Below, in pieces: positions 28,048-44,700 of a stretch of 64,000 nt of DNA (its first letter is position 1; each line of letters opens with the position of its first letter). The notes beneath the pieces were generated by a model. It saw only the letters and a list, made by a program, of their open reading frames with translations. It had not been told where the DNA came from and did not search any database. The DNA is from Candidatus Bathyarchaeia archaeon (GTDB lineage: Archaea; Thermoproteota; Bathyarchaeia; Bathyarchaeales; Bathycorpusculaceae), in NCBI GenBank assembly GCA_038727135.1, contig JAVYWL010000002.1, forward strand, positions 224,001 through 288,000. Direction: 5' to 3'. The position numbers and the translations under genes were made by a program.

Positions 28048-29170
28048 CTGCGTCCCTTAAAAACGGTTCTCGTCATCCAGTCTTTCCACTCCTTTACCAG
28101 CGGCATCCTCGGAGTCGTAATCCCCTTAATAATGGAGGAGAGACGCATAGACATAGTCCTAATAGGCTTTGTTTTCGCAGCTATGCCCCTAATAATGCAA
28201 CTTGGCAGAATGTTCTTCGCCACCCTTTCAGACTTTTTTGGAAGGAAGCCCTTCTTTATGGCGAACGGATTCTTAGGCACCATATCAAGCCTCATCTACT
28301 ATTTTGCCCACACTCCAATGGAGTTCCTCTTCGGAAAAGTTGCAGAGGGAACAAAGGAGGGCGCCATATGGGCTGTAAATAGGGCCTATATTCTAGAAAG
28401 AAGCAAGGGGAACTGGAGGATTCTTGTCAACCTAAGAACGGTTGTTTATGTTGCCTACGCCGTCGGCAGCCTCATAGCCGGATTTCTAGCGGCACTAGTC
28501 CTATATGAGGGGACGATGATTTTATGCGCCCTTTTAGGCGTTCTGGGATTTCTCCTCTCCTTCACATTAACTGATGAAAGGAAGGGCGAATTCACCACAG
28601 GACAAGCCTTACGTTTCCTTGACTTTAGGAGGAAGGGGCGAAAGTTCAAAATTTTCCTATTCCTATTCTTTACAATGGGCTTGGCCTTTGGCTTCCGCTC
28701 CGGATATGTCATACCATGTTTCCTAAACAATGTTGGCTTTTCCCCAGAAAATGTTGGACTGGTTTTTGGCACCATGATTCTTACGGCAGGCTTGTCCTCG
28801 TACATCTTCTCCAAATATCGCGACGTGAAAAGACTCATTCTAACAAGCGGAATAATCTATTCGGCTCTTTTAATCCCCCTAGGGTTTTCCCCCCGCTATT
28901 CTCGCCGCCGTCCTAGTGGTGGCTGTTGGCTTCGCCGAGGGGATGAACAGTGTGGGACAAGAGGGAATACTATCAAAAATTTGCGAAAAGGAGTCTTATG
29001 GGACCGACATCGGCCTGCTTATGATGGGGCTCCACTTGGGCGAGTCGGCGAGCCTAGCCCTAAGCGGCATACTAATCGCCAACTGGGGCTTCACAGCGTC
29101 CTTTGTTCTGGCAGCCACAATATACGCAGCCTTCTACATCGGCGCCTTCGCATTATATGGGGAGAAATAG
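28048..29170 (+). pseudogene. MFS transporter interrupted by a +1 frameshift in a C6 run
   Basis: LSDFFGRK motif A; removing one C at 28889-28894 restores FSPAILAAVLVVAVGFAEG...ALYGEK with stop at 29170; start uncertain (CTG 28048 or ATG 28132). Confidence 0.78.
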
Positions 29171-29172
29171 CC

Positions 29173-29991
29173 TTGCCCACAAACATAAAAGTGGAAAAAC
29201 TTCAAGAAGGGCTGAAAACAAGGCTTGTCGGAAAATACATTTTCTTCGCCCACGAAGTCGGCTCAACCAACGATTGGGCTAAGGAGCTGGCAGAACTCGG
29301 CGCCCCAGAAGGCACAGTTGCCGTAGCCGAAACCCAAACCTCTGGGCGGGGAAGACTTGGCAGAAAATGGATTTCACCAAAAGGAGGCTTATGGTTCTCA
29401 ATAATTCTTAAGCCAAAGCTTAAGCCACCGGAAACCGTCAAACTTGTGTTTTTGGCAGGCTTAGCCGTTGCAGAAACCCTACGCGAATTGTATAGCTTGA
29501 AGGCTGAAACAAAATGGCCCAACGATGTTGTGGTGAATGGGCGGAAGGTTTGCGGCATCCTCTCAGAAATGAAAACCATAGGAGAAAAAGTTGATTACAC
29601 AATAATTGGCGTAGGCGTAAACGCCAACATTGACGTTGAAAAAGAATTTCCGAAAGAGCTTAGCGAAACAGCAACTTCCCTCCAAAAAGCCTTAGGCAGA
29701 AAAATCTCCCTAGAAGAGCTTTTCAAGGCTTTGCTGGAGAAAATGGACAGCCTTTATCAAATCTTCCTTAAAGAAGGATTCACGCCAATTTTGAAGGAAT
29801 GGAAAAGCTTCGCATCTTTTCTAGGCTGCGAAGTGGAAGTCTCCAGCGATGGTGAGAGGCTTAAAGGTGTAGCTTCTGATGTTGATGGGAACGGGGCGCT
29901 GGTTTTAAGGTTTGAAGATGGTTCTGTAAAACGTGTTTTCTTTGGAGATGTTTCCCTGCGATGTTTGAAATTAAAACCACATGGACTTTGA
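29173..29991 (+). CDS. birA: Biotin-protein ligase (no HTH domain)
   Basis: STND, QTSGRGRLGRKW, KWPND and KVCGIL motifs; own TTG start at 29173. Confidence 0.92.
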   Translation: MPTNIKVEKLQEGLKTRLVGKYIFFAHEVGSTNDWAKELAELGAPEGTVAVAETQTSGRGRLGRKWISPKGGLWFSIILKPKLKPPETVKLVFLAGLAVAETLRELYSLKAETKWPNDVVVNGRKVCGILSEMKTIGEKVDYTIIGVGVNANIDVEKEFPKELSETATSLQKALGRKISLEELFKALLEKMDSLYQIFLKEGFTPILKEWKSFASFLGCEVEVSSDGERLKGVASDVDGNGALVLRFEDGSVKRVFFGDVSLRCLKLKPHGL

Positions 29992-30388
29992 ATATTCAAT
30001 GTATTTTTGTATGATATTTGTTACGACGTTTTCTTCAACTGTGCTGGGTGAATAGCGTGCGCATAAATGGAAAACTTGTATTCTGTTATCATTGAAAATT
30101 TTGGAGATCTGTGTTCGCAATCCTACATGCCTACTTTCAAGACGTATGAACTGATTAGCGATTTCCTTAAGTTCGGACTCGAGAGCTCTTTTCCGTTCCT
30201 CTAACGCTTTGATTTTTTTGTAGGAGTTGTTCCTCTGAGTAGGGGGACGCTATTCCAAGATGTATAACCTTCTGAATAAATGCGGCGTTGCCCACTGAAA
30301 CTTTCAGCTTTTCGGCGGGTTCTAAAATCCCACAGCTTCCATTCACATATATCGCTTTCTGGTTCCTCTTTAGTTCAACTTTAACCAA
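29971..30388 (-). pseudogene. Coiled-coil protein with an apparent +1 frameshift in an A7 run (gene 4 of the riboswitch operon)
   Basis: Removing one base at 30213-30219 extends the 73-aa ORF to about 138 aa: QKIKALEERKRALESELKEIANQFIRLE...KSMWF, stop at 29971. Confidence 0.65.
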
Positions 30389-30394
30389 AACTGG

Positions 30395-30670
30395 TCACAC
30401 CTTTCTGTTTAAAATGTTTTCAAGTTTTTTCTGATCTTCAATCAACTCGTTCAGCATTCTTTCCTCTCTTTTTATGTCATCTGGCAGCTCCGCTATCCGC
30501 TTCCTTAAATATGCTATCCTATCTTCAAGAGACTGCACTTCCTGTGCAAGAAATTGAATCTTAAGCGTGAGCAACCCTTTACGGATTATTTCTTCCGCTT
30601 GGTTTCCAAGTTTTTCATATAACCGTGCCGGAATGATAATCTTAACACGTTTATCTTCACCCTTACTCAT
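30395..30670 (-). CDS. Small protein, possible RHH-like N-terminus plus coiled coil
   Basis: KRVKIIIPARLYEKL followed by a heptad-like segment; its ATG directly follows the upstream TAG. Confidence 0.7.
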   Translation of the reverse strand: MSKGEDKRVKIIIPARLYEKLGNQAEEIIRKGLLTLKIQFLAQEVQSLEDRIAYLRKRIAELPDDIKREERMLNELIEDQKKLENILNRKV

Positions 30671-31378
30671 CTATGAGTAAGCCTCCCGCAACTTTAGTCC
30701 CCTCCTACCTACAACCTTTTGAACGCTCCTCAACAACACGTCTCCGATTGCTGTGCGATCCTTTTCTGAGAATTCGTAGCTTTGCCTCTTTACGTATTCG
30801 GAAAGTTCCATGTTCAAGCGGCGTAGGTTTTTCTCTTCAACATCAACAACGGCTTTAATGACGTCTTGGCTCTGGTTGTGTGTAGCCTTTTCCATAGCAT
30901 GGAGTAGGGTTGTAAAGTGAGGAAGACACAAGCCTTTAGACTCTTTAAAGAGATTAAGAAATTCTCCATCGCGTGAAGAGAGCAGCTCCACAATTTTCTT
31001 GACGTAGACTTTCAATAAACTGGCTAGGTGGACACATGCAGGGCAGCCGGCTGTTTGGATGAAAGCTTCTTTGCGATTCTTCCTTTGTTTATGTAAGTCC
31101 TGTAGAAGTTTTTCTATGATGCTTTGAGTGATTAGGGCTATTCCGTGACCGTCGGGGCTTTCTGGTTTTGTGGCTGTTATCAGCATTCTGTAGAAGTGGT
31201 GGTTGCAAAATCCCCCGCCTTCAATAAGTGTCTCCCTTGCCTTGGCGTCCATGACAAGTTCGGAGAGGTAAGCGTCTATGTATTTTCTTTCAATTTCATC
31301 TTCGAGTGCGCATAGGAAGCATTCTGCACCGCTTTTTATCATCCTTTCGATGCGGAAGTATGTTACATCAACGCTCAT
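30671..31378 (-). CDS. DUF6062-like protein with duplicated CxxC...CxxH metal-binding motifs
   Basis: CFLC...GGFCNHH and CPAC...GLCLPH motifs. Confidence 0.75.
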   Translation of the reverse strand: MSVDVTYFRIERMIKSGAECFLCALEDEIERKYIDAYLSELVMDAKARETLIEGGGFCNHHFYRMLITATKPESPDGHGIALITQSIIEKLLQDLHKQRKNRKEAFIQTAGCPACVHLASLLKVYVKKIVELLSSRDGEFLNLFKESKGLCLPHFTTLLHAMEKATHNQSQDVIKAVVDVEEKNLRRLNMELSEYVKRQSYEFSEKDRTAIGDVLLRSVQKVVGRRGLKLREAYS

Positions 31379-31382
31379 GCAA

Positions 31383-32258
31383 TCACCACTGCTCCTCAAT
31401 TGTTTTTAATATGCTTACAGCGTAGAAGGTGTCCTCAAAAGTGGATATTCCAATGTCTGACCTTGCAAATCCACCGTTTGCGTTTTGGCATCTTAACACA
31501 AACTCGGCTGTCTGCCTTGGATACCGCAAGCTTTCGCCGAGAAGATTAAGCGTTGACACTCCGTAATATACATGTTCCATGAATGGTGTGGAGCCGTCCG
31601 GCACAACGGTGAAGCCTCCATAAGGCTTTTCGCAAGCCCTAACATATCCAAGCGTATTCTTAAGCAGCTTAACCTGATAGCCCAAATTGAAAAGCGAAGC
31701 TACAGCATGATAAGTTGAATTCAGGTTTGAGTGCCCGTAGGCTCCAAAACCGCCGTCATTATTTTTGAAGCTCAACAGCCAATCTATAATTTTCTCACGG
31801 TTAACTTTTACATTAATCATGTTGGCAAGGTCAGTTGCCATAAACACTGATAGAAATTCTGAGGCAACCTCAGCATAAACGTCAACGGTTCCAAACTCGC
31901 CCCTGATAATTGGCAAAGAAAGAACAAACTTTTTCAAGCTCTCCCTGTCCGGCTCTTTGCCGCATAAATTTAGGGCTTCAGCCACATAATAATGCGAGTA
32001 AAGGCTGTCTGGAGTAAAGCCACGCAGCCACTCAACAGTCTTTTTAACATTTGGAAAAGGAAAGCCCAACAAATGCAAGATTGCCAGTCCATAATACGTG
32101 TCCTGTGCGTTTGATTCGGTTCCCTGACAGAAAGTGTATCCACCATCCTCATTCTGCCTACTAACAACATAGCCAACGACACGCTTAATCAACAAGTCTG
32201 TAAACTGCCTATTCACCAAAAGAGCTAACCGCCCCGCTTCCCGCAACCCAATACCCAC
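31383..32258 (-). CDS. Prenyltransferase/squalene-oxidase repeat (alpha/alpha barrel) protein
   Basis: Repeats RQNEDGGY, FKNNDGGFG, CEKPYGGF and CQNANGGF, each followed by a T/V-Y/F-Y/H-A/G helix. Confidence 0.82.
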   Translation of the reverse strand: MGIGLREAGRLALLVNRQFTDLLIKRVVGYVVSRQNEDGGYTFCQGTESNAQDTYYGLAILHLLGFPFPNVKKTVEWLRGFTPDSLYSHYYVAEALNLCGKEPDRESLKKFVLSLPIIRGEFGTVDVYAEVASEFLSVFMATDLANMINVKVNREKIIDWLLSFKNNDGGFGAYGHSNLNSTYHAVASLFNLGYQVKLLKNTLGYVRACEKPYGGFTVVPDGSTPFMEHVYYGVSTLNLLGESLRYPRQTAEFVLRCQNANGGFARSDIGISTFEDTFYAVSILKTIEEQW

Positions 32259-32279
32259 CTAAACGCATTTTAACACTGG

Positions 32280-32341
32280 GTAGAAGCTATCAGCCCTCGC
32301 GCACAAAGAAGCGAGGGCGGTTAAAGGCGAGCTTCATCGCC
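32280..32341 (-). ncRNA. Fluoride riboswitch (crcB motif)
   Basis: Minus strand reads GGCGATGAAGCTCGCC-TTTAACC-GCCCTCGC...GCGAGGGC-TGATAGCTTCTAC: P1 GGCGA/TCGCC, pseudoknot GAAGCT/AGCTTC, P2 hairpin and CTAC tail. Confidence 0.9.
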
Positions 32342-32366
32342 TTGAAGCTGGTAAAAAGCCATGAAT

Positions 32367-32382
32367 GAATATAAAGGTTTTT
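32367..32382 (-). promoter_or_regulatory. BRE/TATA promoter of the riboswitch operon
   Basis: AAAAACCTTTATATTC on the minus strand, about 28-34 nt upstream of the aptamer. Confidence 0.6.
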
Positions 32383-32391
32383 CGGGAGACT

Positions 32392-44625: not shown

Positions 44626-44700
44626 TGGGCCCGGCCGGATTTGAACCGGCGACCAACAGGTTATGAGCCTGTCGCTCTAACCTAGCTGAGCTACGGGCCC
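44626..44700 (-). tRNA. tRNA with CAU anticodon, probably tRNA-Ile2 (agmatidine) rather than Met; no intron
   Basis: Full cloverleaf GGGCCCG...ACAGG-CTCATAA-CCTGT...GGTTCAAATCC...CGGGCCCA; the GGGCCC acceptor stem is typical of archaeal Ile tRNAs. Confidence 0.93.

Follow-up and report, generated by a model that had tools for sequence, protein, structure and literature searches.

Why should a fluoride riboswitch stand in front of genes that encode no fluoride exporter? The question is raised by a stretch of 64,000 nucleotides, here called the window, from a Candidatus Bathyarchaeia archaeon (contig JAVYWL010000002.1, positions 224,001 to 288,000 of the forward strand). An RNA of the crcB family heads a run of four co-directional genes there: the first encodes a prenyltransferase-repeat alpha/alpha toroid protein (PT), the second a DUF6062 protein and the last two coiled-coil proteins. 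An earlier note on this DNA, made from its letters, had given the gaps between them as 4, 0 and 6 nt, which is correct, and had seen no multi-pass membrane profile in any of the four products. The latter point holds as well: no 19-residue Kyte-Doolittle segment in these proteins reaches 1.6, and a major facilitator superfamily (MFS) protein taken as control has many segments at or above that value. The evidence assembled here argues that the riboswitch probably exerts ON control over PT, a family that would have a dedicated place in the archaeal fluoride regulon and would most likely relieve toxicity inside the cell, not by pumping the ion out.

The RNA itself is readily recognized. The Rfam covariance model RF01734 matches 32274-32350 on the (-) strand with 48.6 bits (E 2.1e-10) over model positions 1-64 of 64, 14.6 bits above the gathering score of 34. 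The crcB aptamer that the earlier note had placed at 32280-32341 (-) falls inside this match, and the covariance-model check that it had proposed is passed. An Rfam scan finds this single match to the family both in the window and in the whole assembly (1,548,789 bases in 7 contigs, Bathyarchaeia, 94.7% complete; genome G000). A TATA-like box, TTTATATT, read by eye in agreement with the earlier note, stands some 18-25 nt before the aptamer match and follows an A-rich stretch that resembles a B recognition element (BRE). The same box recurs at this distance in three other genomes (G005, G006 and G007), and four more have a similar one (G062, G070, G164 and G178). The order of box (32368-32375), aptamer (32274-32350) and start codon (32246) puts the riboswitch in the 5' leader, on the strand of the PT gene and downstream of a putative promoter.

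Is the link between riboswitch and PT a peculiarity of one genome? Three samples bear on this: 60 relatives plus G000, 151 evenly drawn Bathyarchaeia genomes, and species-representative genomes. RF01734 occurs in 11 of the 61 genomes of the first sample, and a PT homologue of 41-99% identity (tblastn) lies directly behind the riboswitch in G005, G006, G007, G021, G035, G015 and G047 and twice in G046, with DUF6062 next in six of these genomes. In the second sample, 23 genomes have riboswitch matches above the cut-off, 28 in all, and 18 genomes have PT, at 20 loci. At 17 of the 20 PT loci the riboswitch is immediately upstream on the same strand; G149 is cut by a contig end, and G091 and G145 have none. 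Counted from the RNA, PT is the commonest riboswitch target among these 151 genomes, standing behind 17 of the 28 matches, with CrcB behind 6 and an MFS gene (G143), a lone DUF6062 gene (G080) and a small protein (G147) behind 1 each (G110 and G165 were left out); CrcB was found in just 12 of the 151. For the third sample an alignment of 22 PT orthologues (A3) retrieved 109 relatives, of which the best 80, at 38-94% identity, were kept. RF01734 lies upstream on the same strand, at the Rfam gathering threshold, in 67 of these 80 loci, or in 67 of the 78 that can be assessed, L055 and L131 beginning at a contig end.

The search of other genomes that the earlier note had suggested has thus recovered the riboswitch-PT link, and the outcome that it had named as fatal, a chance juxtaposition after loss of a fluc gene, is refuted: the link is kept over 38-94% identity and in several archaeal phyla, riboswitch-positive loci including Brockarchaeota (L103), Freyarchaeota (L104), Jordarchaeia (L106) and a metagenome-assembled genome (MAG) of Thermococci (L112). 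Its picture of a four-gene unit survives in part. PT, with or without DUF6062, is conserved; what comes after varies between two or more kinds of tail, of which the coiled-coil genes form one. As far as genome comparison goes, the invariant element is riboswitch plus PT, and the remainder is a putative fluoride gene island of variable content.

Several points tell against a dedicated fluoride role. RF01734 is absent at 11 of the 80 loci (L070, L071, L113, L130, L088, L091, L094, L095, L098, L119 and L120), which include Archaeoglobi (L070, L071) and Methanosuratincola / Methanomethylicia (L113, L130), and PT can therefore work without the riboswitch. The 80 loci overlap the 151-genome sample and come from related species, so they are not independent trials. 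Fluoride binding, induction and resistance are predictions for these RNAs and proteins. Could the juxtaposition then be meaningless, or the RNA sense some ligand other than fluoride in these archaea? The riboswitch-free loci, and the fact that fluoride sensing is read from sequence, are what such a view can draw on, but it is very improbable: the consensus match extends over 64 model positions with its 14.6 bits to spare, in the same genomes this RNA also stands before crcB, the classic fluoride target, and the link persists over deep divergence with differing partners and leaders. The PT orthologues of L070 and L071, both from Archaeoglobales / Archaeoglobi MAGs, have 65-67% identity, and L070 has a tRNA directly upstream; the riboswitch-free Archaeoglobi PT may reflect a transfer without the leader.

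The neighbours of PT, counted within 1.5 kb downstream at the same 80 loci, are varied. DUF6062 follows in 40, an unrelated, conserved 215-aa protein in 9, an MFS gene in 9, a NUDIX hydrolase in 6 and CrcB in 2, and an MFS gene lies upstream of PT in 2. The 215-aa protein replaces DUF6062 in a second operon type (L020:2924-3571, L019:3009-3680, 9 of loci L052-L131); searches of Pfam, NCBIfam and the Atlas gave no usable match to it. NUDIX genes lie inside the riboswitch-PT-DUF6062 operon in L023 (G015:C10), L035, L036 and L037, G015 having one between riboswitch and PT. Several riboswitch-headed units (L051 in G147, 736-1188; L049 in G080, 1548-1967; L042/L043 in G176) share another protein, some 140-150 aa long, whose N-terminus has the motif ENH(R/K)R.L; in G147 its gene comes directly after the riboswitch, and the one member scanned has no NCBIfam match.

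Transporters also appear in this setting. A second riboswitch precedes CrcB-DUF190 or an MFS gene in G035, G089, G169, G189, L105 and L107. Riboswitch-headed MFS genes are seen in L050 (G143:C26, riboswitch 513-585, open reading frame 560-1810), L105:3050-3852 and L107:3302-3834. The two riboswitch-linked MFS types are 27% identical to each other and are candidate fluoride or fluoride-related transporters; no link of this family to fluoride was found in the texts cited here, in the parts consulted. The genome of the window encodes an orthologue of one type, 61% identical (E 4e-146), at G000:C1:294128-295276 (L132:2605-3798), on another contig and with no Rfam match nearby at E up to 1. It has no match to CRCB (PF02537) or to Voltage_CLC (PF00654), families that were both found in most control genomes, and its sole fluoride riboswitch heads an operon without a membrane protein. 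The earlier statement that no fluoride exporter is present is accordingly right for this operon, and for CrcB and CLC genome-wide, but too broad otherwise, as related operons carry MFS or CrcB-DUF190 genes and the genome keeps its MFS orthologue elsewhere.

Could PT, with or without DUF6062, be a cytoplasmic accessory that gates, assembles or feeds an MFS or CrcB transporter, leaving export as the real mechanism? The presence of two MFS types in or next to PT operons (downstream and upstream alike), of CrcB after PT or a few kb downstream (G015, G035, G089, G169, G189), of MFS genes with their own riboswitch (G143, L105, L107) and of the retained MFS orthologue would all fit such a role. It is nonetheless unlikely, given that in the 151-genome sample 14 of the 18 PT genomes have no CrcB match (PT and CrcB occur together in 4, always in one cluster), most PT loci have no transporter in the 1.5-kb flank, the MFS gene of the window's genome is unlinked and lacks a riboswitch, and in G164 and G178 the riboswitch heads PT and no further gene.

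How might the RNA control the genes behind it? In 38 aligned leaders drawn from the 67 riboswitch-positive loci, P1, P2 and the pseudoknot, which joins the P1 loop to the 3' tail, have standard pairs in 98.8% of 683 cells, and six pairs are altered on both sides, values reached by 0 of 500 shuffles. A regular expression parsed 51 of the 67 aptamers and failed on 16; among those parsed, 7 distinct combinations occur, and in every one of them the pseudoknot has all its pairs (42 of 42 cells); compensatory exchanges run from A-U to G-C and from U-A to C-G in the pseudoknot and from C-G to U-A in P1. The pattern of exchanges indicates that the aptamer is under structural selection and that it is, by consensus and covariation, a genuine fluoride riboswitch.

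Folding points to a second structure that competes with the aptamer. The minimum-free-energy fold of the leader with the first codons, at -51.3 kcal/mol, pairs AACCGCCCUCGCUUC (32308-32322) with GAAGCGGGGCGGUU (32227-32240), destroys P2 and encloses the Shine-Dalgarno (SD) sequence and the start codon. A duplex scan of the 67 leaders finds a large subset with the same kind of partner 24-38 nt past the aptamer. Across the 38 leaders this 14-pair anti-aptamer helix is paired in 93.4% of 531 cells, a percentage inflated by the choice of these leaders for having a duplex-scan partner, and five of its pairs are altered on both sides. None of 500 shuffles equals its pairing or its covariation score, and registers slid along the leader are paired to 35-51%. 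Two columns covary with column 38: its partner in P2 and column 122, the latter a synonymous third position of a codon. P2 and the anti-aptamer helix are mutually exclusive and both are maintained, as expected of an expression platform. The fold and its covariation together suggest a translational ON switch on a leadered mRNA. Without fluoride, AACCGCCCUCGCUUC would pair with codons 3-7, and the anti-aptamer helix would break P2 and bury the translation start region. With fluoride, the fold of P2 and pseudoknot would be locked, AGGUG and TTG 32246 would be freed and the operon would be translated.

The selection of leaders is not the only point that weakens this model. The leaders are related, and one of them served to define the helix; the 3' strand of the helix lies in coding sequence, where protein constraint could add to the conservation; and orthologues of the other operon type have a different leader. 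There the aptamer core has a partner that contains GGUGGG, which is SD-like. The N-terminal residues encoded by the helix are modelled with low confidence, at a predicted local distance difference test (pLDDT) value of 48 for PT residues 1-10, and are absent from the orthologues of the other operon type; a low-confidence, non-universal N-terminus fits a constraint at the RNA level. A platform in which the 3' tail of the aptamer pairs with the SD sequence was considered and rejected, as its duplex energies are no better than those of mononucleotide shuffles in most of 23 leaders: depending on the locus, 3 to 162 of 200 shuffles did as well, which again does not favour translational switching. 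A 117-nt short fold, with a z-score of -1.15, is uninformative.

What kind of protein would the switch deliver? Read from the GTG at 32258, the PT gene covers 31383-32258 (-) and encodes 291 aa, with a Pfam Prenyltrans (PF00432) match of 113.9 bits (E 1.3e-32). The earlier note had taken this GTG as the start. TTG 32246, codon 5 of the GTG frame, is likelier, because 70 of the 77 aligned homologues have Met in that column, the annotated proteins closest to PT have a length of 287 aa, and an AGGUG 9 nt upstream is complementary to the 3' end of the genome's own 16S rRNA, ...GGAUCACCUCCU. AlphaFold2 models PT as an alpha/alpha toroid with a mean pLDDT of 93.7. The best folds that Foldseek finds in the PDB are RabGGTase beta chains, at template-modelling (TM) scores of 0.71-0.75 and about 20% identity, followed by GGTase-I and FTase beta chains and class II terpene cyclases; the best PDB sequence match is again RabGGTase beta (E 2.5e-12).

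The fold is kept and the residues that would make it a prenyltransferase are not. Aligned with RabGGTase beta, PT has F226, E228 and E275 at the positions of the zinc ligands, which we take to be D238, C240 and H290 (Asp, Cys and His). The Arg and Lys that presumably bind diphosphate in RabGGTase beta face Val and Gly or Ser in PT (GGFTVVPDGSTPFMEH versus GGLNGRPEKLPDVCY). No match to the PPTA alpha subunit (PF01239) was found in the window's own genome, which is 94.7% complete. Because the zinc and diphosphate residues are replaced and no alpha subunit was found, PT is, as judged from its residues and its genome, not a canonical protein prenyltransferase. Polar residues are conserved all the same among the 77 homologues (R266 in 99%, E228 in 87%, E275 in 86%, and also E210 and S133). 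To see in E228 and E275 a new metal site would be over-reading, as the position is acidic or polar in every repeat and may cap helices. A terpene cyclase is not indicated either: the catalytic motif of class II terpene cyclases is DxDD, none was seen in the PT translation, and NCBIfam cyclase models score 20-33 bits on PT against cut-offs of 323-851. Elsewhere in the genome there is a single other Prenyltrans-repeat match, of 39.5 bits, at G000:C1:454451-454891 (L030); it lies inside a 672-aa open frame, and PT therefore has no close housekeeping paralogue.

Is PT nevertheless an isoprenoid or diphosphate enzyme, overproduced or made in a fluoride-insensitive form, on the ground that fluoride blocks Mg-diphosphate chemistry? 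Such an enzyme would suit the fold and the Pfam family, which are those of prenyl-diphosphate-using enzymes. It would suit the NUDIX proteins, Mg-dependent diphosphate hydrolases, that share the operon with PT at 6 of the 80 loci and border it in G015. It would also follow the logic by which bacteria put enolase and pyrophosphatase under riboswitch control; pyrophosphatase, enolase and HAD phosphatases are given as common riboswitch targets in the parts consulted of one survey (PMC11139923). The replacement of the zinc ligands and of the putative diphosphate-site Arg and Lys, the missing alpha subunit, the lack of a visible DxDD and the want of a close housekeeping paralogue that PT could replace all argue the other way, and make the idea rather improbable.

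What remains is a soluble protein that would be made when fluoride rises. A role inside the cell is favoured over export because PT is soluble, because no CrcB was found in most PT genomes of the 151-genome sample and because PT is the sole gene of the unit in G164 and G178. A soluble protein alone cannot lower steady-state cytoplasmic fluoride, so PT must protect, bypass, modify or chemically remove something. The main product of the operon would be a cytoplasmic alpha/alpha toroid with a prenyltransferase beta fold that lacks the zinc-binding and diphosphate-binding residues. A DUF6062 protein with two Cys3His sites would often accompany it, and PT would most likely relieve intracellular fluoride toxicity by protecting, bypassing or processing something. 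The same limit on what a soluble protein can do cuts against this reading too: with an MFS orthologue in the genome, export may be the real defence. PT's part in fluoride tolerance is thus a predicted one. The earlier proposal of an undescribed soluble fluoride-response system remains fair as regards the genes, though not as a fixed four-gene unit.

A bolder variant has PT, with or without DUF6062, acting on fluoride itself as a third, export-independent defence. The desolvated central cavity of PT might capture the fluoride anion, or PT might fix fluoride to an organic electrophile, giving a neutral product that would leave the cell, in the manner of halide methyltransferases. The absence of the usual diphosphate-binding residues is noted beside this speculation, which we regard as a long shot. 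If it were true, PT would be what hot-spring archaea depend on when they lack Fluc and CLC-F.

The features of the operon and its leader are collected in the table.

Features of the riboswitch-headed operon, in window coordinates
Feature	Position	Strand	Basis or remark
TATA-like box TTTATATT	32368..32375	(-)	Read by eye
Fluoride riboswitch aptamer (crcB motif, RF01734; P1, P2, pseudoknot)	32274..32350	(-)	Rfam match, covariation
Anti-aptamer helix, 5' strand AACCGCCCUCGCUUC (J1/2 junction and 5' strand of P2)	32308..32322	(-)	Folding, covariation
Shine-Dalgarno-like AGGUG	32256..32260	(-)	Complementary to own 16S 3' end ...GGAUCACCUCCU; 9 nt before TTG 32246
Anti-aptamer helix, 3' strand GAAGCGGGGCGGUU (codons 3-7 of PT)	32227..32240	(-)	Folding, covariation
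PT, prenyltransferase-repeat alpha/alpha toroid protein, 287 aa from TTG 32246	31383..32246	(-)	Pfam, AlphaFold2, Foldseek
DUF6062 gene, all-helical, two CxxC...CxxH (Cys3His) sites, 234 aa	30671..31378	(-)	PF19538
CC1, 91-aa coiled-coil protein	30395..30670	(-)	Sub-threshold Pfam matches only
Gene 4, coiled-coil protein of about 138 aa, read in two frames	29971..30388	(-)	Extra A at 30213-30219

The product of the second gene matches PF19538 with 121.5 bits against a cut-off of 27 (E 5.2e-35) over profile positions 9-239 of 243; C19, C57, H60, C111, C114, C150 and H153 are invariant and C22 nearly so, and the model is all-helical at pLDDT 85.3. Comparison with the PDB gave no fold match (best E 0.49) and no sequence match below E 0.06. 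NCBIfam gave no match, and the ESM Atlas returned DUF6062 clusters only, mostly bacterial. A full-text search found no paper naming the family, and none that ties it to the fluoride riboswitch. When PT and DUF6062 were co-folded, without controls, the score was 0.00, which counts neither for nor against a complex. A 403-aa metagenomic protein, P0086, carries both PF00432 and PF19538 and could be a PT-DUF6062 fusion or a read-through gene call.

The two downstream genes are less widespread. CC1 has homologues in G005, G007, G021 and some of the 80 loci. Its N-terminus, KRVKIIIPARLYEKL, weakly resembles a ribbon-helix-helix domain (RHH_5, E 0.07), and the protein might be a small DNA-binding regulator instead of a structural coiled coil. 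Gene 4 is split by one extra A in the run 30213-30219: G005 and G007 have one A fewer there and an intact frame of 137-138 aa, and contigs of all four hot-spring metagenome runs aligned to the stretch have one base fewer at 30213. These comparisons make it likely that the frameshift is an assembly indel. All four aligned runs also have small insertions at 32385 and 32401, and at 28132-29991 (+) an MFS gene and a BirA-like biotin ligase run together in a single frame of 619 aa, garbled in its middle, while in G005 the two genes are separate; several assembly indels seem to be present in the window. The sole further Rfam match in the window is a tRNA gene (RF00005, 74 bits) at 44626-44700 (-).

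Where does this archaeon live? Nine runs from three studies, labelled as hot-springs metagenomes, each hold at least half of the sampled words of the stretch, and no RNA runs holding it are among the runs listed. Geothermal water is often fluoride-rich. The operon offers a handle on archaeal fluoride tolerance in such water, PT being a small soluble protein open to expression, assay and crystallization. It also gives a first functional clue for DUF6062, adds candidate MFS fluoride transporters and provides a comparative model of riboswitch translational control in archaea, where expression platforms are poorly understood.

Set against the literature, PT looks like a new kind of target. The texts cited here, in the parts consulted, link the riboswitch to Fluc, CLC-F, Na+/H+ antiporters, pyrophosphatase, HAD proteins, enolase, formate hydrogen lyase and chorismate mutase (PMC11139923), to mutS, K+ or Cl- transport and, once more, formate hydrogen lyase (PMC2864571), and to TK0513 behind the Thermococcus kodakarensis riboswitch (PMC4247193). 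In these portions riboswitch-linked fluoride defence consists of two exporter families and extra copies of inhibited enzymes, and neither a prenyltransferase-like protein nor DUF6062 is named. Full-text searching found no paper linking a fluoride riboswitch to a prenyltransferase-like protein, though the gene list of Baker et al. 2012 may include such a gene. TK0513 was considered as a candidate PT homologue; a 2018 study by Speed et al. is said to place it in an export pathway. By the same partial account about 15% of Flucs are riboswitch-regulated (PMC11139923), against 67 of the 78 assessable PT loci, which ties PT to the riboswitch more tightly than the exporters.

How, finally, does the system compare with those already known? 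PT shares Pfam repeats above the cut-off and the toroid fold with the beta subunits of RabGGTase, GGTase-I and FTase (PF00432); it differs from them in being about 20% identical, 287 aa long, archaeal, riboswitch-linked and devoid of the zinc ligands. Its resemblance to class II terpene cyclases such as squalene-hopene cyclase and MstE is weaker (TM 0.58-0.63), and its SQHop_cyclase Pfam matches are sub-threshold. PT is a single toroid domain of 287 aa, compared with roughly 340-540 aa for the single-toroid cyclase chains matched and about 630 aa for two-domain squalene-hopene cyclases. The second gene of the window is a full-length member of PF19538. Compared with the RF01734 regulons of bacteria and archaea, the window RNA shares the aptamer family and its three elements P1, P2 and pseudoknot, and likewise lies in a 5' leader on the strand of its gene, where ON logic would be expected; relatives have this RNA in front of crcB-DUF190 too. 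Two things set it apart. PT is none of the targets named in the parts consulted of the cited texts, to which the supplements of Baker et al. 2012 may add more, and the platform of the window appears to be a long-range helix into the coding region, not an intrinsic terminator. On the comparisons made here, a known RNA sensor is coupled to a new putative effector family, and the link between them is conserved.

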